A stretch of 64,000 bases of DNA from a bacterium (GTDB lineage: Bacteria; Patescibacteriota; Dojkabacteria; SC72), in contig JAIORF010000102.1 in the NCBI GenBank assembly GCA_021108295.1, positions 226,681 to 290,680 of the forward strand, given 5' to 3'. Both the position numbers and the translations under genes were made by a program. Position 1 is the stretch's first letter. Each line of letters starts with the position of its first letter. The notes below the pieces were generated by a model that was given only the letters and a program-made list of their open reading frames with translations, was not told the origin of the DNA and searched no databases. This document shows positions 43,396 through 63,700 of the stretch, piece after piece.

Positions 43396-43518
43396 ATGAA
43401 GAAAGTTCAGAGACAAAGATGCGAGGTATACTCACGAGTTGTGGGATATATCAGACCTGTCAAGCAGTGGAATAAAGGGAAAGTCTCAGAGTTCCATGAC
43501 AGAAAGATGTTTGACTAA
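43396..43518 (+). CDS. 40-aa ORF encoding an NrdD-type glycyl-radical motif (EVYSRVVGYIRPVKQWNKGKVSEFHDRK), in frame with nrdD
   Basis: Translation is MKKVQRQRCEVYSRVVGYIRPVKQWNKGKVSEFHDRKMFD. It matches the conserved NrdD C-terminus (EVYSRVxGYxRPVxxWNxGKxxEFxxRK). It is in the same frame as nrdD but is separated from it by two in-frame stops (TAG 43366, TAA 43375). It ends 2 nt before the nrdG ATG. Confidence 0.6.
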   Translation: MKKVQRQRCEVYSRVVGYIRPVKQWNKGKVSEFHDRKMFD

Positions 43519-44204: not shown

Positions 44205-44324
44205 CCTTCATACCACCCACCTCTCTCTGATTTATAGAATCTCACTCTCCAACAATCTGTATGCTATTGTACACATAGGTAGAGATGTTATATACTTGGA
44301 GATATAAATTATATTTCAAAAGTT

Positions 44325-44791: not shown

Positions 44792-44868
44792 CGGGGAATA
44801 GTTCAGATGGCTAGAACGCTGCTTTTGGGAAGCAGAGGTCGCAGGTTCGAGTCCTGTTTCCCCGACCA
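44792..44868 (+). tRNA. tRNA-Pro (anticodon TGG)
   Basis: CGGGGAA TA GTTC AGATGGCTA GAAC G CTGCT TTTGGGA AGCAG AGGTC GCAGG TTCGAGT CCTGT TTCCCCG A CCA. This is a full cloverleaf with an encoded CCA. Confidence 0.85.
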
Positions 44869-44968
44869 ATATAACTCCAGATGAAAAACCTTCTTTAGAA
44901 CTTGACTCCATAATTACATTTAGAGTATATTAAAAATATACTAAGTTGTTATTTCATTTCCAAAAGAA

Positions 44969-45352
44969 ATGCTGGACGATTTAATAAAAACGATAGGGCC
45001 AGTGAGAAATGCCCTAAATCAAGACCAAACTCCAAACAAATCAGGAGGTGAGACAAATAATACTTTCCAAATAGAAACAGAAAGGGACGAAACCCTACAC
45101 AATGCAACAAAGGATCAGGTGATAGCTGGGCAGAATTCAACTAGCTCTGATAATTCCTTTATGACTTTATCCAAAGGTGAAGATTTTATACAAGTTGCTC
45201 ATTCAGATAAAGGATTCGTTGTTCAATACAAAAAAGACGGCAAACAATTTGAAGCAAAAGAAGTTTTATCAAAAGAAAAAACGGGAAAGTTATGCGTAAG
45301 TTTTTACAATGAAGAAAACTTAAAGGGGGTGGCTAACTGGAGTGACTTTTAG
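44969..45352 (+). CDS. hypothetical protein (127 aa)
   Basis: ORF inside the cassette flanked by the two tRNA-Pro copies. It is hydrophilic. I recognise no family. Confidence 0.35.
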   Translation: MLDDLIKTIGPVRNALNQDQTPNKSGGETNNTFQIETERDETLHNATKDQVIAGQNSTSSDNSFMTLSKGEDFIQVAHSDKGFVVQYKKDGKQFEAKEVLSKEKTGKLCVSFYNEENLKGVANWSDF

Positions 45353-45414
45353 TTACTATAAATCTCCAAAACCCCAGCATAATTACCATATTTTATTTAA
45401 TTCTTTATATAATC

Positions 45415-46347
45415 ATGACAGACAAACAAAATGTCCCGGTAACGAGTGAGCCCGTGGCAAACAGCCCAGTAACAGACGCCCCAGCAGTCGACTCAGTTTC
45501 AGAGCCTAAGGGGAAAAAATCAAAGGTATGGCTCATTGTACTTATCATCGTCCTCATCTTACTATGCCTTGGTATTAGTGCAATAGTATTCTTTGTTAGA
45601 AATATGTCCACGGATACAATTTCAGATCTCTCCGATACCAACGAACAAGTAGACGAAATTGATGAGTCGACAGATACTACAAACCTCAGTGAAAGCTCTG
45701 ATCTGGCAGGGAAGTGGGTAGATGTATATTCTGAATCTGGACAAGGAAGTAAAAATACAAAAATATTTCAGATAGACCGGGACAACAGCAATGGATGGCA
45801 GATTATCTATACATTCGCAGGAAGCTCGGATACTTCGACATTATCTATTGATTCGACTTCCCCACCTTTAACTTATGGAACTACTGTAGTCGACCATGTA
45901 TATGAGAATGGCGAGGTCAGCCTAGATGAAGATGGTCCTTACTATCTTACGATTGCAACAGACGACGATTCTTCTTGGACAATACAGATAAAACAACTTA
46001 TGAACGATCAAATACTAACAAACGTCCTAGACGATAGCACAGGAGAATGGGCCGATATATTGTCAGACGAAGGAATCGGAAGTCAAAACACAGAGGTTTT
46101 CCAAATCAGCAAAGATAATAGTAAAGGGTGGGAAATCGTCTACACATTCCAAGGAAGTTCTGACACCTCAACCTTGTACATTGAATACGTTGTTCCAGAG
46201 TTGACTTACGGTACAACCGTAGTTGAATATGTATACGAAGGTGGAACATTTACTTTCGACGAAACCACGACAGGTTCATACTATTTGAGAATTGGGACTG
46301 ATGACAACTCATCCTGGACAGTAGAAATCCGACAACTTCTGGACTAG
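45415..46347 (+). CDS. hypothetical membrane-anchored protein with an internal tandem duplication
   Basis: It has an N-terminal Pro/Ser-rich segment followed by a TM helix (VWLIVLIIVLILLCLGISAIVFFV). Two about 100-aa repeats follow, at residues about 103-200 and about 209-310. These are W(V/A)D..S..G.GS.NT..FQI..DNS.GW.I.YTF.GSSDTSTL.I....P.LTYGTTVV..VYE.G....DE...YYL.I.TDD.SSWT..I.QL. Confidence 0.5.
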   Translation: MTDKQNVPVTSEPVANSPVTDAPAVDSVSEPKGKKSKVWLIVLIIVLILLCLGISAIVFFVRNMSTDTISDLSDTNEQVDEIDESTDTTNLSESSDLAGKWVDVYSESGQGSKNTKIFQIDRDNSNGWQIIYTFAGSSDTSTLSIDSTSPPLTYGTTVVDHVYENGEVSLDEDGPYYLTIATDDDSSWTIQIKQLMNDQILTNVLDDSTGEWADILSDEGIGSQNTEVFQISKDNSKGWEIVYTFQGSSDTSTLYIEYVVPELTYGTTVVEYVYEGGTFTFDETTTGSYYLRIGTDDNSSWTVEIRQLLD

Positions 46348-46368
46348 TTTAAAACCATATGTTCTTTT

Positions 46369-46444
46369 GCTAAGTACAGTTCAGATAGTAAGGACGCTAC
46401 GTTTGGGGGACAGAGGTCAGGTTCAAGTCTTATTTGCCCCACCA
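46369..46444 (+). pseudogene. degenerate tRNA-Pro-like copy (tRNA pseudogene or att-like remnant)
   Basis: GCTAAGTACAGTTCAGATAGTAAGGACGCTACGTTTGGGGGACAGAGGTCAGGTTCAAGTCTTATTTGCCCCACCA aligns with the bona fide tRNA-Pro at 44792 along the D-arm to the CCA. The aligned blocks include AGTTCAGAT, ACGCT, TTTGGG, CAGAGGTC, AGGTTCaAGTC and CCCC-ACCA. The acceptor 5' strand is absent. The anticodon and T stems are broken. Confidence 0.5.
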
Positions 46445-46450
46445 ACACAA

Positions 46451-47485
46451 TTACTTCTCAACATTCTCTATCTCTATCCCACCCTTCAATAATATCTGGT
46501 TCATTCTCTTTACTGTCTCTACTGCTTCAGTACCATTCGCATACTCTGATAAGTAGCGGAAGTAACGCCGTATAATCTCTTGCTTTGCAGCTTCTCTACA
46601 CACACTATCATCTACAATCCCTGTAGCTGCCATATTTACCCCCATATCGGTTGGAGATTTATAATTTATCACATTCCCTCCAGATATCCTCTTTAGAATA
46701 CTCCTAAGTATTCTAAAGTTCACTATATCCCTATCATAATTAACTGCCAATATGTTGTATGCCTCTTTATGAAATGGGTCTATCATATTTATATCACCAA
46801 TATCTGCAGTAGCCGCTTCATAAGCAAGATTTATTGGGTGATTTAAAGACAAGTTCCAGATAGGAAATGTCTCAAACTTAGTATAACCAACCTCAACTCC
46901 CCCCCTATACTCATGATAAATCTGACTTAAGCACACACCCATTTTCCCAGAGCCTCCACCAGGTCCTGTTACAACAACTAACTTCTTCTTAGTTTCAATC
47001 TTAGACTGCTTAGGGAGATTTAAAAGTACACTCTCCATATTTGTAGAATATTCTGGAATTACATTATGAAGAAATGTAACAATCCCCATCTTTTCCAACC
47101 TGCTCTTAAATATCTCAACCCTCTGCTCATCCGTGTAACGTGTTATAACAACATTCTTAATCCCCATTCCATAATTCCTTAAGCTATCTATCTCCTTAAT
47201 GGCTTGATCATCATATGCCAATCCTGTATCACCTCGTATCTTCCCCTTTTCAATATCTTGTGCACTTATACAATAGATTATCTCTAAATCACCCAACTCT
47301 TTTAGAAGTTGTAATTTTGTATCAGGCCTATATCCAGGCAAAACCCTTACCGCATGCCTGTCATTAATTAATTTCCCACCAAACTCTAGATAAAGTTTAT
47401 CATACTGATCTAAACGCTCCGTAAGTTTTTTCTTCTGGGCTTCTAAATATTTATTTGTATCAAACCCCTGTTTTTGAGTATCCAT
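46451..47485 (-). CDS. UPF0371/DUF1846-like protein (apparently C-terminally short)
   Basis: It has the motifs LYLEFGGK, RVLPGY.PD.KLQLL, VVTGPGGGSGKMG (P-loop-like), KFETFPIWNL.LNHPINLAYEAATAD, SPTDMGVNM and EAAKQEIIRRY. I recognise these from memory as the UPF0371 family. The start is placed at MDTQKQGF; the track ORF extends to 47569. The stop abuts the tRNA-like remnant. Confidence 0.4.
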   Translation of the reverse strand: MDTQKQGFDTNKYLEAQKKKLTERLDQYDKLYLEFGGKLINDRHAVRVLPGYRPDTKLQLLKELGDLEIIYCISAQDIEKGKIRGDTGLAYDDQAIKEIDSLRNYGMGIKNVVITRYTDEQRVEIFKSRLEKMGIVTFLHNVIPEYSTNMESVLLNLPKQSKIETKKKLVVVTGPGGGSGKMGVCLSQIYHEYRGGVEVGYTKFETFPIWNLSLNHPINLAYEAATADIGDINMIDPFHKEAYNILAVNYDRDIVNFRILRSILKRISGGNVINYKSPTDMGVNMAATGIVDDSVCREAAKQEIIRRYFRYLSEYANGTEAVETVKRMNQILLKGGIEIENVEK

Positions 47486-47686
47486 AATGGTGTTGTATGG
47501 TAAAAATAAAAAAGAGAGTTTTTTTTTCATAGTTCTTAAACTATAAAAACCCTCTTTAACAAAAACCATGAAAAGTATAGCATACTCTTCTGTACAACGT
47601 AAGCAATATATAGATCATCGCAATGCTTGACTTGGTGCCCCTTATATATATACTATAAATATACTATATACAATTGAAAGAGATTA

Positions 47687-49870
47687 ATGAAAATATGCTG
47701 CCCTCCTAAAATCTTTCTCGTACTGTTTTTTATTCCACTAACACTGCTTTGTGTTCTAAGACCAATACCTCTACAAGCTGCCAGCACATCAATAGTTATT
47801 AATGAGATTGTGGGGAACCCCTCAGGTTCTGAGCCACTTAATGAATGGATTGAATTATACAATTCATCAAGTAACGAAGTGAATATGGCCGACTGGATAT
47901 TAACAGACCTTGATACCTCTGCCTCTGGAAGAGGTACCTCCTTGTACCATGATGGAGTTTTTATATTCCCACCTCTTATCGTTCCACCGGGTGGCTATGT
48001 CCTCGTTTCTGTTGGGGCACATGCAAATGGACAGGGCTACTATAATAATGATTATCACTTTGATTTCGCTTCGGGAGATTACACTTCCACCTTATACTGG
48101 GGACGAACCTCCGGTGGCCTAAACAACGCTGGTGAACAAATTGTTTTACTTGAACCAATTGATGGCATACTCCCTATTTATGACGATACAAACAACTACA
48201 TAAGAGGTACTTTAGTTGATTTTGTTACTTACGGAGGCATGGCATCCAGTGGTAATAACAATATTGCAATCGATGCAAACGCTAATGGTGTAATTGATGG
48301 AGATGAATACCCTGGAGGTACTGATTTTACCAATATTCAATCTGAAAGAGCACATGAACCAGGAACAAATTCTGACGATTCTTCCATAGCACTTGATCCA
48401 AACGGTGATGATCAAGATGGTAGTTCAGACTGGCAAGATATCACTGCTGGATTTGCCACACCTGGAACTTCTAATGACGGAAGTACCGGACCAAGCTCAA
48501 ACACCTTGTATGAAGAACAGTCGGGCCTAATTATCAACGAAATCGTATATAATCAGGCAGGTGGAGATGCTTGGCTGAATGAAGATGACGAACAGATTGA
48601 GCTATACAATCCAACAACGGAGCCAATTTATATTGGGAATTGGGCAATTACCGACTTAAAGACAGCTACAAGTGGTGGTAACCATGACACATACGACTAC
48701 AACTATCATGATCATGTTTTTATTTTCCCTGGGTTACTTGTTCCACCCCAAGGTTTCGTTGTTCTTAATTTAGGCCTGGAGAGACCACAAAGCGATTGGA
48801 GTTTCGAAGGTGATAATATGGTGACTATATATTGGGGACGTGACAGATGTATTCTCAATGACGATGGTGATGAAGTTGTCCTATTGAGTCCCATTGATTA
48901 CACAACCCCCGTCTACAACGATACTACGAATGTGTTGAGGGGGAATATCCTTGATGTAGTTATCTACAATTCCATAGGCTCTAATGATGGGAATGATATT
49001 ATAATTGATTCTAACGGAGACAATGATGGCGACGACCCTGGTGAGCATGCTGCTGGAGGATTTCTTAACAATCACACTGCCGCAACCCACACCGGCACCT
49101 CGCTAACAGGAGATGAAGAATCTATTGCTTTACATCACAACGGGGAGGATTCTGACAGTGATTCTTTTTGGTCAGTAGAAACACTTTCTACCTATTTATC
49201 AACTACACAACAATCAGCCACAAGACCTGTAAGTGGGGACATCTTTACATTTTACGGAGATGGTATAAGCATTGGGGCAAGAAACGATCAGCCAATTTCA
49301 ATCATTACGGTTGCAAATACTGCTATTGACCAAACAGGGGATGTAAATGTTCATGAAATTGGTGATAGAATTCAATATACGATTACATTGGAGAATTCTG
49401 GGGACAAAGAAGATGGGATTAGCTTTGAAATCGATACACCCTCACGCACAACCTATGTTTCATCTTCTGCAACTTCAGGAGTTCTCACTATGAATGGCGA
49501 CACACTCAACTGGACAGGATTAGTACCACGCACTAATCCAGTTACCCTCTATATGTACGTCGACATTGCATCAGATGACTCCCACAGCGGTGTCGTTAGT
49601 AGCCAAGGTATTGCCAGCTTTGATGGACAAGGTAATAATACCCAAAACACAACTTCTCTCTCAGATGATCCCGATACTCCCGACCAAGATGATGCTACTG
49701 TATTGGGAGTAGCAGACGATGGGGATAGTGGCTCAACAGAGACACTTAGTAGTACAGGGATTAACCAAATTGGACATATAAACTTTGCAAGATTACTAAT
49801 ACTGTTTTCTACACTAAGTCTTGCTATATCTCTGAGGTGGAAAGTAGAAATACCCTCCTCTTTTACTTAG
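47687..49870 (+). CDS. secreted lamin-tail-domain (LTD) x2 plus DUF11-like repeat surface protein with a C-terminal sorting-signal-like tail
   Basis: It has a signal peptide. Two LTD-like modules are present: SIVINEIVGNPSGSEPLNEWIELYNSS...WILTDLD, and LIINEIVYNQAGGDAWLNEDDEQIELYNPT...WAITDLK. A DUF11-like segment reads VANTAIDQTGDVNVHEIGDRIQYTITLENSGD. The C-terminus reads LSSTG, then a hydrophobic stretch (ARLLILFSTLSLAISL), then RWK. Confidence 0.65.
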   Translation: MKICCPPKIFLVLFFIPLTLLCVLRPIPLQAASTSIVINEIVGNPSGSEPLNEWIELYNSSSNEVNMADWILTDLDTSASGRGTSLYHDGVFIFPPLIVPPGGYVLVSVGAHANGQGYYNNDYHFDFASGDYTSTLYWGRTSGGLNNAGEQIVLLEPIDGILPIYDDTNNYIRGTLVDFVTYGGMASSGNNNIAIDANANGVIDGDEYPGGTDFTNIQSERAHEPGTNSDDSSIALDPNGDDQDGSSDWQDITAGFATPGTSNDGSTGPSSNTLYEEQSGLIINEIVYNQAGGDAWLNEDDEQIELYNPTTEPIYIGNWAITDLKTATSGGNHDTYDYNYHDHVFIFPGLLVPPQGFVVLNLGLERPQSDWSFEGDNMVTIYWGRDRCILNDDGDEVVLLSPIDYTTPVYNDTTNVLRGNILDVVIYNSIGSNDGNDIIIDSNGDNDGDDPGEHAAGGFLNNHTAATHTGTSLTGDEESIALHHNGEDSDSDSFWSVETLSTYLSTTQQSATRPVSGDIFTFYGDGISIGARNDQPISIITVANTAIDQTGDVNVHEIGDRIQYTITLENSGDKEDGISFEIDTPSRTTYVSSSATSGVLTMNGDTLNWTGLVPRTNPVTLYMYVDIASDDSHSGVVSSQGIASFDGQGNNTQNTTSLSDDPDTPDQDDATVLGVADDGDSGSTETLSSTGINQIGHINFARLLILFSTLSLAISLRWKVEIPSSFT

Positions 49871-50528
49871 GGAAAGCTTCAATCACAATACGTCCATCAT
49901 CCGATCCTGCGAGAGTACATGTATACAAGGTTAGCCTGCTCTTTTCTGTTTGCTTCTCTATTTCCATTTGGTCTGGCTCTACAACATAGATATTCTTAAC
50001 AACATATATATACATCACATGATTCCAAACAATTTTGATTTCATCATCCACTTCCAACTTATCAATATTATAAAAAGGAGACTTTCTTCTTGTACTATCT
50101 ACTGTCAGCCCAAGTTCTTGCCTATGTGCTGTCAAAAGAAAGTTCCCCACCTTCTCTGGATCCCCCATTTCAGGGAATTTGTGATATACCCCTAGAGACA
50201 AGACTTCCTCGCCACCTTCAAAGATCTCCTCAAACAAATCTATCTTGGGAATAATAATCCAATTCTTTTCAATAAATTCTTCTTCCATACTACCTACCTC
50301 AACCCCATTATCAATCACGGAGATATTCGATACCTCCTTTGGAAGAGGCATCATAATTGATGGAGACATAATTAACACCATCAAATAGATTCCTATCAAC
50401 AAACTCACTAAGGATGCAAATATTAAAAATCTACGAAGTCTAAAGGCGTTTTTATTAATTAGAGCCCTCACTTTCCTAACAAGAATATTATTGGAACTTT
50501 CCCTAAGGTAGGTCTCTGTTGTTTCCAA
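49863..50528 (-). CDS. sortase (class B/E-like transpeptidase)
   Basis: It has an N-terminal TM helix. The catalytic His is LLTAHRQ. The TLxTC motif is LTLYTCT. The conserved Arg is SDDGRIVIEAFP. It is convergent with, and overlaps by 8 bp, the 3' end of the LTD protein gene. The track ORF start overlaps rsmI by about 60 bp. Confidence 0.75.
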   Translation of the reverse strand: METTETYLRESSNNILVRKVRALINKNAFRLRRFLIFASLVSLLIGIYLMVLIMSPSIMMPLPKEVSNISVIDNGVEVGSMEEEFIEKNWIIIPKIDLFEEIFEGGEEVLSLGVYHKFPEMGDPEKVGNFLLTAHRQELGLTVDSTRRKSPFYNIDKLEVDDEIKIVWNHVMYIYVVKNIYVVEPDQMEIEKQTEKSRLTLYTCTLAGSDDGRIVIEAFPK

Positions 50529-61606: not shown

Positions 61607-62590
61607 ATGCTTAATAAAGACATTTTACATATTGTCGCCGAGACCTTACATCCAACTACAGAGATTTCTTTAGAAACATTAACCCAAATATTTGAGGGTA
61701 TAATTCTTGACAAAAAGAAATTTAACCATGCTTATTTGACACTTTATATGTACGAGAAGTTTTGCAAAACAAGAGACGTTCAAACACGAAAGACTTCTGC
61801 AAGAGATTTTGAAGACTTTGTTGCAGCAATTTCAAATGGAGAAATTGCAGATAGCTCAACGAGACACAACAGTAACAATCACGACATTCTTGTTGAAAAT
61901 AAAGCAATCACAGAATGGGTTATAAACAATAAAAGAGAGAAGGCTGATATCAATTATCCTAACAACTATAGCATTACTATAAAAACACTTGTTGAAAGTA
62001 ATAAAGAAATTAATATGGGTGCTTTTGAAAAAACAGCTTTATTCGCCGAATTTGGAGTAGTTCAATATTTAGAAGAAAGAAGAAGTTCTACTAAAGGCAC
62101 TGGCCTTGGTTCAAAACCTCAATTATTTAAACTTTTATCTATCCTTCAGAGTAATGGATCTTGGGACAATTTTGCTAATCGTTTTATAAATATGGCAAAA
62201 CACATCTACTCTGACGATATTATCGTATTTATAAAAAGTGAAAAACACCCACTTATTTATTTAATCAGTTCAGACATTTTTAATAAAAAGATGGCTGAAG
62301 CTGTTCAAAGCCCTCAAAGCTTTATCAACATTGTTAATCGTTGGGAAGGAAATAACATTCGAATGAATAGAGACTCTATACTGCATAAAGTAATTCCTCT
62401 TCAACTTAATTTTAGTTATCTGAACAAACATATTATTTCTCAAATAAATACAAACCTCTCTACTATTACAAAAAACTTTGTTTTATATATTGAAGATAAT
62501 CATAATAAGGAAATTTACAAACAAGAGATTTTTGAATTGTGCGAAGAAACGTTGTCTGGTATCGATAATAAATTGTCCGAATTAATTTAA
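61607..62590 (+). CDS. hypothetical protein in the R-M cassette (possible second REase subunit or specificity/control factor)
   Basis: 327 aa. I recognise no motifs. It lies 40 bp downstream of the putative REase gene and 2 bp upstream of the MTase. Confidence 0.35.
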   Translation: MLNKDILHIVAETLHPTTEISLETLTQIFEGIILDKKKFNHAYLTLYMYEKFCKTRDVQTRKTSARDFEDFVAAISNGEIADSSTRHNSNNHDILVENKAITEWVINNKREKADINYPNNYSITIKTLVESNKEINMGAFEKTALFAEFGVVQYLEERRSSTKGTGLGSKPQLFKLLSILQSNGSWDNFANRFINMAKHIYSDDIIVFIKSEKHPLIYLISSDIFNKKMAEAVQSPQSFINIVNRWEGNNIRMNRDSILHKVIPLQLNFSYLNKHIISQINTNLSTITKNFVLYIEDNHNKEIYKQEIFELCEETLSGIDNKLSELI

Positions 62591-62592
62591 CT

Positions 62593-63609
62593 ATGAAAAT
62601 AATTTCTCTTTTTGCAGGTTGTGGAGGGTTAGACTTAGGCTTAAAGGACTATGGGCATAATCTCATATGGGCAAACGACAATGACAAGAATTGTGTTGAA
62701 ACATATGAAAAGAACATTAGTCAGAGAATTATCTTAAAAGACATTTACGATTTGGATATTGATTCCATTCCAAAAGGTGATGTTGTTGTTGGAGGTTTCC
62801 CCTGTCAAGGATTTTCAATAGCAAATCCCTATCGAACCGTAGAAGATAAAAGGAATTTATTGTTTGTACCAATGGCAGAGATAATCAAATCCAAGAGACC
62901 TAAATATTTCATTGGAGAGAACGTTCAAGGGTTAACAAATACCGGTGGATACGAGACATCGGCAGACAAGAAGAATAAAACTGGTCGAATGTTTAAACTT
63001 GTATTAAGAGAATTTTCTAACTCTGGATATAAAGTGTTTTGGGAAATAATTGACGTTAGCAAATTAGGTGTCCCTCAAAAAAGAAAAAGAATAATAATTT
63101 TTGGTATAAGAAAAGATTTATTTGACAAAAGAGTTCCCAAACTCTTTTACTCTGATACAGAAGCTCAGGTAAAAACCATTCGTGATGCTATCTCTGACTT
63201 ACCAAAAGATTTCTCTGATACAATCCCCAATCATACAGGCACTAAACACAAGGTTAAAATCAATGGATATATTGGTAACAGAGCCACAAAATGGGATGAA
63301 CCTTCTCCTACTATTGTTGGGCGAGGTGGTGGAACAGGTGGACCAGTTATAATCCCACATCCAGATCTACATAGAAGATTAAGTATAAGAGAGTGTGCAA
63401 GAATCCAAACATTCCCAGATGATTTTATATTCCAAGGTAGTAATAGCTCACAATATCGTCAAATCGGAAACGCTGTGCCTGTTAAACTTGGTTATTATCT
63501 CGGAAGACTTCTAGATGATTATGATAACAAAAACACCTCTGGAGAGAATTTTATTGAGTTCAAAGAGTTTCTCGACAATACTTACGAAAGAGAACTTTTC
63601 TCAAAATAA
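62593..63609 (+). CDS. DNA (cytosine-5)-methyltransferase
   Basis: Motif I is ISLFAGCGGLDLGL. Motif IV is GGFPCQGFS. Motif VI is ENVQGL. Motif X is QIGNAVP. It is 338 aa. Confidence 0.88.
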   Translation: MKIISLFAGCGGLDLGLKDYGHNLIWANDNDKNCVETYEKNISQRIILKDIYDLDIDSIPKGDVVVGGFPCQGFSIANPYRTVEDKRNLLFVPMAEIIKSKRPKYFIGENVQGLTNTGGYETSADKKNKTGRMFKLVLREFSNSGYKVFWEIIDVSKLGVPQKRKRIIIFGIRKDLFDKRVPKLFYSDTEAQVKTIRDAISDLPKDFSDTIPNHTGTKHKVKINGYIGNRATKWDEPSPTIVGRGGGTGGPVIIPHPDLHRRLSIRECARIQTFPDDFIFQGSNSSQYRQIGNAVPVKLGYYLGRLLDDYDNKNTSGENFIEFKEFLDNTYERELFSK

Positions 63610-63626
63610 ACTGCCTAATTCTAATT

Positions 63627-63700
63627 TGGTTGCGGGACATAGACTCGAACTATGATTCTCGGCTTCAAAGGCCGGCGTCCTACCATTAGACGATCCCGCA
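63627..63700 (-). tRNA. tRNA-Gln (anticodon TTG)
   Basis: Reverse complement reads TGCGGGA TC GTCT AATGGTA GGAC G CCGGC CTTTGAA GCCGA GAATC ATAGT TCGAGTC TATGT TCCCGCA A CCA. It has a U1:A72 pair, as in bacterial tRNA-Gln. Confidence 0.8.

Follow-up and report, generated by a model that had tools for sequence, protein, structure and literature searches.

In the genome of an uncultured Candidatus Dojkabacteria (Patescibacteria) bacterium, part of a proline tRNA gene persists as a dead fragment. It sits exactly where a two-gene cassette ends on its right side, in an islet whose content turns over between lineages. We tentatively read this fragment (psi-tRNA) as a decayed recombination scar in the variable islet between tRNA-Pro and p234-mutL, where the cassette or a larger element would have entered by att-type recombination; the chances of this reading fall a little short of even, and the att-type mechanism itself is plausible but unproven for the cassette. 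Together with a neighbouring DUF1846/UPF0371 gene cut back to a single domain, the psi-tRNA appears to be what earlier insertions and deletions left behind in a hotspot of gene exchange, an ordinary genomic scar. The features of the islet are as follows, with positions given within the window, the whole 64 kb stretch of DNA that was analysed.

44792–44868, plus strand: tRNA-Pro(UGG), functional, conserved left anchor of the variable islet (ARAGORN; Rfam)
44902–44931, plus strand: promoter-like site (TTGACT, 18 nt, TATATT) upstream of ORF127 (consensus scan, 10/12 matches)
44969–45352, plus strand: ORF127, small lineage-restricted protein, first cassette gene (homologues; dN/dS)
45415–46347, plus strand: ORF310, membrane-anchored protein, second cassette gene (homologues; repeats; model)
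46348–46367, plus strand: right end of the cassette; these ~20 nt are the final stretch that still aligns between the window, L007 and L008
46378–46452, plus strand: psi-tRNA-Pro, non-functional, comprising decayed tRNA positions 9–77 (46378–46444) and ~8 nt of 3′ flank, ACACAATT
46451–47485, minus strand: DUF1846/UPF0371 gene, N-terminal domain only, 344 codons from the Met at 47485
46369–47619, unstranded: window-specific segment absent in L008 (junction alignment)
47627–47654, plus strand: promoter-like site of the LTD-domain surface protein gene (10/12 matches), right boundary of the window-specific segment

A degenerate copy of tRNA-Pro

The complete tRNA-Pro(UGG) gene named in the original prediction was detected by both ARAGORN and Rfam (RF00005, 66.4 bits). 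It is 100 % identical in the relatives L089 and L090 and differs at one position in L091, and the 50 nt of tRNA-Pro present in L008 are 100 % identical to the resident gene. Local alignment of the gene to the whole window returned one further match, the psi-tRNA, with a score of 57 against a maximum of 26 or less in 20 shuffles of 12 kb. As had been described from the sequence, the copy is co-directional with the intact gene and runs from the D-arm to CCA without the 5′ acceptor strand. tRNA positions 9–77 correspond to 46378–46444 with 53 of 67 aligned bases identical (79 %), the changes comprising 14 substitutions (10 transitions and 4 transversions) and one 2-nt deletion, and the longest exact run shared by the two sequences is 9 nt. 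Bases 46370–46377, in the place of the 5′ acceptor strand, gave 3/8 matches, indicating that homology starts at the D-arm. The bases after CCA (ACACAATT) resemble the flank of the L008 tRNA (TCACAATT) when both are anchored at CCA, and also resemble the tRNA-Pro flank of L091. We found no such copy of any other tRNA in the window, and the additional copies of the degenerate repeat that had been proposed as a check were absent from both the window and 316 kb of relatives' loci. The arrangement recurs in four independent assemblies with at least 99.97 % identity over the region, which rules out an assembly artefact.

The copy is not a tRNA. ARAGORN made no call, Rfam gave no match at E≤10, and direct reading of the alignment shows broken acceptor, anticodon and T stems. 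Its predicted fold was no better than that of shuffled sequences (z +0.93 versus −1.95 for the real tRNA; minimum free energy −13.9 kcal/mol against a shuffle mean of −16.3), with the same outcome when flanks were included and on either strand. The segment 46378–46444 is a dead tRNA-Pro fragment without a stable fold, and the prospect that it would fold as a bona fide tRNA, raised in the original prediction as a point that would overturn it, did not materialize. It is scarcely credible that the fragment works as an RNA, whether by signalling tRNA-like processing, by terminating the convergent transcripts of ORF310 and DUF1846 or by acting as an atypical tRNA. The fragment does lie exactly between two convergent genes and retains the anticodon-loop TGG and the D-stem, but its stems show no compensatory changes, no terminator-like site was found, and L008 lacks the fragment despite carrying the same ORF310; the missing tRNA call and the poor fold weigh the same way.

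Comparison of alleles points to a source other than the resident gene. The resident tRNA-Pro departs from the class consensus at three positions and the psi-tRNA differs from it at all three, carrying the class-consensus base at two (G31 and the TTCAAGT T-loop) and, at the last, a base that matches neither the resident gene nor the consensus. The derived states of the resident gene are common to L089 and L008 and partly to L091. On these diagnostic sites the psi-tRNA probably goes back to the tRNA-Pro of a different Dojkabacteria lineage, with an estimated likelihood ratio of ~30 for a non-resident origin. Because of these non-resident alleles, it is very improbable that the resident gene was duplicated in tandem, alone or together with the cassette, and that the downstream copy then decayed; the alternative offered in the original prediction is disfavoured. 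Duplication would fit the shared orientation of the copies, the transition bias of the substitutions, as in neutral decay, and the flank similarity that runs a few bases beyond CCA. Against it, besides the alleles themselves, the distribution of the resident states among the three relatives makes them far older than the psi-tRNA divergence, and homology stops at position 9, where the 3/8 upstream matches have P ~0.02 at the observed identity. That divergence was estimated at K 0.20–0.25 substitutions per site, based on 12–14 substitutions and with a 95 % interval of 0.09–0.39.

The cassette and the variable islet

ORF127 and ORF310, originally thought to have no detectable homology, are real, lineage-restricted genes. 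ORF127 has homologues at 80 % (L007) and 72 % (L008) with dN/dS of 0.15–0.47, and the region of its promoter-like site is conserved in both on direct comparison. It had no Pfam, PHROGs or PADLOC match and only a sub-threshold match in NCBIfam. ORF310 has four homologues in Dojkabacteria, at 81, 64, 59 and 56 %, in addition to distant one-domain relatives, and in more distant relatives its homologue adjoins recQ. The protein is membrane-anchored and has, besides an acidic linker, a tandem pair of beta-sandwich (jelly-roll-like) domains, which are the two repeats of ~100 aa recognized at the outset and are 57 % identical to each other. A full-length model of low confidence (pLDDT 44.5) was replaced by a single-repeat model (pLDDT 89.8), whose PDB matches were generic beta-sandwiches only. 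Candidate defence or phage families for the two ORFs proved to be low-complexity or transmembrane noise, and a phage or plasmid origin of ORF310 was rejected, with no match in IMG/VR, INPHARED phages or PLSDB plasmids.

An nrdG-anchored scan of JGI metagenome contigs was utilized to compare synteny. Dojkabacteria share the order nrdD-nrdG-lexA-DUF4870-tRNA-Pro, followed by a variable interval of 2–7 kb and then p234-mutL, and the gene content of the interval was different in every lineage examined. Among about a dozen lineages sharing this backbone, ORF127 and ORF310 follow tRNA-Pro in the window, in L008 and probably in L007, which supports the earlier view that they are accessory genes. Beyond the right end of the cassette, ~20 nt past ORF310, the window, L007 and L008 have three different continuations. 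In L008 there are 82 nt after ORF310 and then the LTD gene, with neither psi-tRNA nor DUF1846. The genome-specific piece is therefore the psi-tRNA with DUF1846 rather than the two ORFs; the segment 46369–47619 comprises the psi-tRNA, the truncated DUF1846 gene and the upstream region of the latter. On its right lies the LTD-domain surface protein gene (47687–49870), whose promoter-like site is conserved in L008 and L089. The synteny comparison thus upheld the suggested variability of the cassette among relatives, but L008 detached the cassette from the psi-tRNA and DUF1846. In L007, the 57 nt past ORF310 were not significant as a further-decayed psi-tRNA (P ~0.04 locally, a match equalled in other parts of the window).

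Divergence between the window and L008 was lower in the cassette (dS 0.48–0.50) than in the flanking backbone genes nrdG and LTD (0.75–0.92), and this contrast in substitution rates suggests a later lateral exchange of the cassette. Half of the cassette dS (~0.25) agrees with the psi-tRNA divergence. The proposed check for a shift in base composition revealed no anomaly over the islet: the psi-tRNA and DUF1846 have a GC content of 0.365, equal to the window mean, whilst ORF310 is higher at 0.416, as is the backbone LTD gene.

A DUF1846 gene reduced to its N-terminal domain

Immediately past the psi-tRNA, the DUF1846 reading frame extends upstream of its Met codon to 47569 on the minus strand, and its stop codon (46451–46453) falls in the tRNA 3′ flank behind the psi-tRNA. 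Pfam identified only the N-terminal domain PF08903 (445.5 bits, profile positions 2–329 of 333), and the match to NCBIfam PRK13663 covered positions 2–340 of 494 with 461.9 bits, below the cutoff of 631. By contrast, 118 of the 119 non-self matches listed were ~500 aa long and included the C-terminal domain PF20921. Alignment of full-length homologues by tblastn ended at 46463 (residue 340), and a search with nine of them found no remnant of the C-terminal domain anywhere in the 64 kb. The protein ends at residue 340 of ~500, which is the boundary between N- and C-terminal domains (placed at about residue 340; PMC9238395). The original prediction was correct that the gene is truncated, but the loss amounts to ~160 codons, not 130.

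Known UPF0371 proteins have two domains (PDB 7f00, the hemin-binding tetramer SPD_0310, and 3bh1). The window protein scores 330 bits or more to both, and its N-terminal domain is complete (PF08903, 445 bits), but it lacks the whole of PF20921 (~160 residues), which in the two-domain tetramer makes C–C and N–C contacts. Of 103 highly conserved positions, 11 are altered in it, an unusual divergence compared with known members. Its best match is 59 % identical, no Dojkabacteria appear among the named matches, and those in viral contigs are ordinary homologues of 47–54 % identity. tRNA-Pro adjoined DUF1846 at none of 81 loci across prokaryotes (80 genome loci and the contig of the best match), nor were the two neighbours in any sampled Dojkabacteria lineage. 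We conclude that the truncation is real, but that integration at the tRNA alone does not account for it. Since the 344-codon frame is still open, either the single domain is under selection or the gene was truncated much more recently. Two more far-reaching readings of the locus are a functional stand-alone N-terminal UPF0371 domain, kept by selection, ending precisely at the domain boundary and using a stop from the tRNA flank, and an integrase-free exchange of small cassettes between lineages of these reduced, recombinase-poor Patescibacteria, in which the invariant tRNA-Pro would serve as the anchor after DNA uptake and the psi-tRNA would be the footprint. Jointly, we consider these distinctly unlikely.

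Proposed origin of the fragment and comparison with known systems

Under our preferred reading of att-type recombination, the cassette, or a larger element now reduced to it, would have entered at tRNA-Pro on DNA bearing a tRNA-Pro-like attP stretch (positions ~9–77 and a few flank bases), with the crossover 3′ of the T-loop. The left junction would have kept the intact tRNA and the right junction the duplicate fragment, which would since have decayed by ~0.2–0.25 substitutions per site, whilst the recombinase may have been lost or supplied in trans. DUF1846, lying past the scar, would represent older islet content, trimmed precisely to its N-terminal domain by a deletion that reached the tRNA flank, which supplied the stop. 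L008 would then have lost both scar and gene remnant in a further deletion, in keeping with deletional streamlining nearby, where lexA is a 17-codon remnant.

Of the attL/attR scar envisaged in the original prediction, the geometry stands: an intact tRNA is paired with a dead, co-oriented 3′ tRNA fragment that continues through CCA into ~8 nt of flank. No recombinase domain was found in ORF127 or ORF310 (Pfam, NCBIfam and PHROGs), no integrase in ten candidate ORFs of the window outside the islet (Pfam), and none in the islets of relatives on inspection of their listed ORFs, mostly without a profile scan. The 3′ half of tRNA-Pro was absent from IMG/VR and had no exact match in JGI metagenome contigs. 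The cassette ends share no exact core beyond 9 nt, and no empty site was found in relatives, where other genes follow tRNA-Pro. Several points count against att-type entry: no recombinase was found in these ORFs, the cassette is just 1.5 kb, the exact core is short, neither an empty site nor an excised form was seen, the relatives' loci contained no psi fragment, and composition is normal. Carriage of the cassette without the psi-tRNA in L008, and apparently L007, obliges the reading to assume at least one extra deletion, and the join of the tRNA flank to DUF1846 codon ~340 requires a separate event.

Alternatively, the 1.25-kb piece comprising psi-tRNA and N-domain DUF1846 (about 46369–47619) may have been captured whole by this lineage alone, landing with ORF310 on one side and the LTD promoter on the other. 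The route would be illegitimate recombination, or its homology-facilitated form (HFIR), with DNA of another Dojkabacteria strain, and the psi-tRNA would be the end of the fragment, redundant on arrival. HFIR is an established route (PMC3240628), the psi-tRNA bears non-resident alleles, DUF1846 looks acquired in having no close homologue, and relative to L008 the window-specific DNA starts within ~10 nt of the psi-tRNA start and ends just upstream of DUF1846. This coincidence of boundaries is weak, however, as selection on ORF310 and the LTD promoter would force the same deletion endpoints in L008. The piece would itself be chimeric, with the tRNA flank joined to codon ~340, tRNA-Pro adjoins DUF1846 in none of the Dojkabacteria lineages or prokaryote loci sampled, and the psi-tRNA divergence (K ~0.2) is of similar age to the L007 split (per-branch dS 0.10–0.19) or predates it. 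On balance, we regard whole capture as unlikely.

In sum, even in a reduced-genome member of the Dojkabacteria a tRNA gene anchors a hotspot of gene turnover, and one event there left a datable footprint whose allele type points to probable DNA exchange between Dojkabacteria lineages. Annotators should avoid a tRNA call at 46370–46444, mark the DUF1846 gene as N-domain-only, and describe ORF127 and ORF310 as accessory surface-related genes. The locus leaves the current understanding of tRNA-linked island formation unchanged.

Among known processes, HFIR during DNA uptake (PMC3240628) would yield a redundant copy of a highly conserved anchor at the end of an acquired fragment without a recombinase gene. 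Its homologous anchor normally replaces the resident copy, unlike the copy here, 1.5 kb downstream. Integrated elements can leave non-canonical partial tRNA genes (PMC9897764), which the psi-tRNA resembles in lacking one acceptor strand, being non-functional and lying beside variable DNA, but it is far more decayed (79 % identity), such that tRNA finders do not report even a pseudogene. tDNA islands, mapped by Islander/TIGER as attL/attR pairs of tDNA fragments (PMC4383910), differ from this locus in their integrase gene, exact identity block and empty-site polymorphism; here the enclosed DNA is only 1.5 kb, the genes also occur in a relative that lacks the fragment, and the host is a reduced-genome Patescibacteria. 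The locus nonetheless follows the tDNA-island principle of an intact tDNA and a co-oriented 3′ fragment (PMC4383910, PMC9897764), with the intact tRNA at one end and the fragment, including CCA and flank bases, at the other. As in such islands, the enclosed genes are accessory and lineage-restricted, and the fragment carries what appears to be the allele of another lineage, as an attP-borne copy does.

The decayed tRNA-Pro copy and its origin

ARAGORN identified three tRNA genes in the window, including a tRNA-Pro(UGG) gene that scored 66.4 bits with Rfam. Local alignment of this gene to both strands of the whole window returned one additional match, between tRNA positions 9–77 and a downstream fragment, with a score of 57, whilst none of 20 shuffles of a 12-kb stretch exceeded 26. 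The features concerned are as follows.

44792–44868, intact tRNA-Pro(UGG) gene
44969–45352, ORF127, first gene of the cassette
45415–46347, ORF310, second gene of the cassette
46378–46444, degenerate tRNA-Pro copy (the fragment)
46451–47569, minus strand, UPF0371/DUF1846 gene reduced to its N-domain (DUF1846-N), likely start at the Met at 47485

In pairwise comparison, the fragment differed from tRNA-Pro by 14 substitutions across 67 positions (10 transitions and 4 transversions) and one 2-nt deletion, and only three of the eight bases corresponding to the 5' acceptor strand matched. Four independent assemblies carried the arrangement at ≥99.97 % identity, and the degenerate second copy described in the original prediction is confirmed. 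Comparable copies of the other two tRNAs in the window were not found.

A hidden functional tRNA was looked for and not found. ARAGORN made no call at the fragment, Rfam returned no match even at E≤10, and the anticodon, T and acceptor stems were unable to pair. Its predicted fold was no better than that of dinucleotide shuffles (z of +0.7 to +0.9, for both strands, with or without flanks), compared with −1.95 for the real tRNA-Pro. Folding, model searches and the absence of the fragment from L008, a contig of a related lineage, thus contradict a functional RNA at this site, which we regard as extremely improbable.

Twelve Dojkabacteria tRNA-Pro genes were aligned with the fragment to compare alleles. 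The resident allele, common to the related locus L089, carries three departures from the class consensus. Two lie in the anticodon stem (T31 and A39) and are also present in the L091 lineage; the third is a T-loop G (TTCGAGT). The 3' part of the L008 tRNA-Pro is identical to the resident allele. At two of these sites (G31 and TTCAAGT) the fragment has the consensus base, and at the other it has a base found in neither allele. Deriving it from the resident allele would take a substitution at each of the three sites, twice towards the consensus, against one substitution from a consensus-type allele; we estimate the likelihood ratio at ~30 in favour of the consensus-type origin. The resident states are older than the splits from L089 and L008 (dS 0.75–0.94) and far older than the divergence of the fragment. 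Because its diagnostic alleles are non-resident and the resident states so much older, the fragment appears to derive from the tRNA-Pro of another Dojkabacteria lineage and not from duplication of the resident gene. Tandem duplication with decay of one copy, the alternative offered originally, is contradicted by these allele states and is very unlikely. The bases following the CCA of the fragment (ACACAATT) match the L008 tRNA flank (TCACAATT) and resemble that of L091; the copy therefore takes in ~8 nt of native-type 3' flank.

The variable islet downstream of tRNA-Pro

Homologues of nrdG assign the window to Candidatus Dojkabacteria (WS6), Patescibacteria. About a dozen lineages (nrdG 61–90 % identical) share the backbone nrdR-nrdD-nrdG-lexA(−)-DUF4870-tRNA-Pro, followed by a variable 2–7 kb and then p234(−)-mutL(−). 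In most lineages this islet carries genes for PEBP-like, EncFtn-like, metallophosphatase, DegT and ~700-aa membrane proteins. An alpha/beta hydrolase occupies it in L091, two minus-strand ORFs of no known family plus LTD-domain surface protein (LTD) and sortase genes in L089, and ORF127, ORF310, the fragment, DUF1846-N, LTD and sortase in the window. The tRNA-Pro itself is 100 % identical in L089, L090 and the 50 nt found in L008, and differs by one base in L091. As content varies by lineage between such conserved anchors, the interval following tRNA-Pro is a hotspot of gene turnover. That relatives hold other genes here agrees with the predicted accessory nature of the enclosed genes. By inspection, no integrase-like gene was present among the relatives' islet ORFs as listed, and ten further candidate ORFs of the window contained no recombinase domain. 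No phage, plasmid or defence signal was found, and there was no compositional anomaly.

Several additional features were observed in and around this locus. An LTD/DUF11 surface protein gene is present in the islet only in the clade of the window (47687–50528), L008 and L089 (15932–18706), and a sortase gene adjoins it in both the window and L089; in the remaining lineages its place is taken by DegT and a ~700-aa membrane protein. Two relatives' metagenome contigs stop inside tRNA-Pro (L008:1–50 and L093:10941–11002), as expected if assembly graphs branch where co-occurring strains differ downstream. All related Dojkabacteria loci have lexA between nrdG and the DUF4870 gene. The window lacks it; its 120-nt spacer at 44205–44324 contains only a remnant (44206–44256, minus strand) of 17 codons, 59 % identical to LexA residues 126–142 (E 0.18). 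A separate 40-aa ORF (43396–43518, plus strand) between nrdD and nrdG matches the NRDD family and has an RVVGY-type glycyl-radical motif, so that the glycyl-radical segment is apparently specified separately from the 694-aa NrdD; this small ORF was also called in L001, L003 and L188. The window nrdD is uninterrupted. In several relatives (L093, L094, L095, L097, L100, L103 and L106), gaps of ~0.9 kb, probably inteins or introns, interrupt the nrdD match following residues ~283–296 and ~395–411. In L091 (7305–9843), nrdR and nrdD are broken into many short ORFs; as the name of the contig points to long-read assembly, the probable cause is frameshift errors rather than pseudogenization. A C-5 cytosine DNA methylase gene (62593–63609, within 61607–63700) directly adjoins tRNA-Gln (63627–63700), and a 327-aa ORF without a Pfam family lies upstream of it, possibly its cognate restriction enzyme.

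Cassette genes and the truncated DUF1846 gene

Neither ORF127 nor ORF310 belongs to a family in Pfam, PHROGs or PADLOC, and NCBIfam gave sub-threshold matches only. The two ORFs had been thought to lack detectable homology; homologues nonetheless exist for ORF310 (81, 64, 59 and 56 % identity) and ORF127 (80 and 72 %). A dN/dS of 0.15–0.47 shows that both are real genes and that purifying selection, though relaxed, acts on them. ORF310 combines the predicted membrane anchor (TM helix at residues ~38–62) with an acidic linker and two repeats of ~100 aa, which share 57 % identity. A single repeat was modelled with confidence as an eight-stranded beta-sandwich (pLDDT 89.8) with generic structural matches only, namely the Tk-SP subtilisin C-terminal jelly-roll and GOLD domains. 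Profile searching recovered ~40 distant relatives, mostly of 155–240 aa with a TM segment and one such domain. We claim nothing more specific for ORF310 than a membrane-anchored, probably extracytoplasmic protein.

DUF1846-N is truncated, as originally suspected. It matches the N-domain model PF08903 only (2–329 of 333, 445 bits) and positions 2–340 of 494 in NCBIfam PRK13663 (461.9 against a cutoff of 631), whereas 118 of the 119 non-self matches listed are ~500 aa and include the C-domain PF20921; the closest of them shares only 59 % identity. With nine full-length homologues as tblastn queries, similarity stopped at 46463 (residue 340–341) and no C-domain remnant was found in the 64 kb. Residue 340 is where the conserved N-domain gives way to the C-domain in the crystallized family member SPD_0310 (PDB 7f00; PMC9238395). 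The last three codons and stop (46451–46462) are non-DUF1846 sequence and fall within the bases just after the CCA of the fragment. Of the 103 positions conserved at ≥95 % in the family, DUF1846-N deviates at 11 (median 1, maximum 7 in 118 homologues), indicating that constraint on it is relaxed or altered. Its 344-codon frame is nevertheless open, with a probability under neutral simulation of 0.02 at 0.1 and 0.002 at 0.2 substitutions per site. Given the ~0.2–0.25 accumulated by the fragment, either the single domain would be under selection or the truncation would be much younger than the fragment. A possible role of this UPF0371 N-domain, bounded exactly at the domain limit, as a stand-alone protein under selection merits follow-up.

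Junctions, timing and the nature of the fragment

L008 and L092 come from one sample, and the nrdG of L092 shares 90 % identity with that of the window. The gene order of L008 is the tRNA-Pro 3' end, ORF127 and ORF310 homologues, 82 nt and the LTD gene. Homology with the window runs ~20 nt past the ORF310 stop and resumes at the LTD promoter (~47620), so the window-specific DNA is not ORF127/ORF310 but ~46369–47619, comprising the fragment, DUF1846-N and its upstream region. In L007 (ORF310 81 % identical) the same ~20 nt is followed by a third, unrelated sequence up to the contig end, a 57-nt tail without significant similarity to the fragment. In the more distant L005 and L006, the ORF310 homologue follows recQ and precedes an unrelated gene for a lipoprotein, and the vicinity contains no tRNA.

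Cassette dS was 0.48–0.50 between the window and L008 and 0.20–0.38 between the window and L007, whilst the flanking backbone in the L008 genome gave 0.75 (nrdG) and 0.92 (LTD). Pooled pS was likewise lower in the cassette (0.36 vs 0.50; z ~3); the common ancestor of the cassette is therefore more recent than that of its surroundings, as would be expected if the cassette moved between lineages. Half of the cassette dS (~0.25) equals the one-branch divergence of the fragment (K 0.20–0.25), and the timing, within a wide 95 % interval (0.09–0.39), is compatible with a fragment made at cassette arrival.

These data firmly identify the fragment as a non-functional, laterally derived tDNA remnant, located where an accessory cassette has its inner boundary within a tRNA-anchored variable islet. 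Equally firm is the truncation of DUF1846 to exactly its N-domain, which abuts the flank of the fragment. For the mechanism we tentatively favour att-type recombination at tRNA-Pro, whereby an attP-borne tRNA-Pro copy, with crossover 3' of the T-loop, would have produced the foreign-allele fragment. The discrete cassette end and transfer-like dS argue for it, and the arrangement has the classical geometry (PMC4383910, PMC9897764); to this extent the predicted attL/attR scar holds, but no recombinase, exact core or empty site was found. As the fragment is missing from L008, and apparently L007, this reading also needs its later deletion there. Such a deletion is plausible, given the reduction of lexA to its 17-codon remnant in the window genome, and its endpoints would be limited by the selection acting on ORF310 and on the LTD promoter. 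The main rival, which seems less likely, is that a foreign piece containing both tRNA fragment and DUF1846-N was captured in one step, by illegitimate or homology-facilitated recombination (PMC3240628). It accounts directly for the L008 comparison, but no donor arrangement was found among sampled Dojkabacteria or 81 DUF1846 loci.

A possible integrase-free exchange of cassettes at this tRNA in Patescibacteria would be worth pursuing. Among known systems, the fragment most resembles the displaced tDNA fragment of tRNA-integrated islands. Two defining features of islands of this class, an integrase and an empty site, were not found here; as to a third, an identity block shared with the intact gene, the fragment is 79 % identical and its longest exact run is 9 nt. 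We therefore describe the feature as an integrase-less fossil scar and not as a genomic island.
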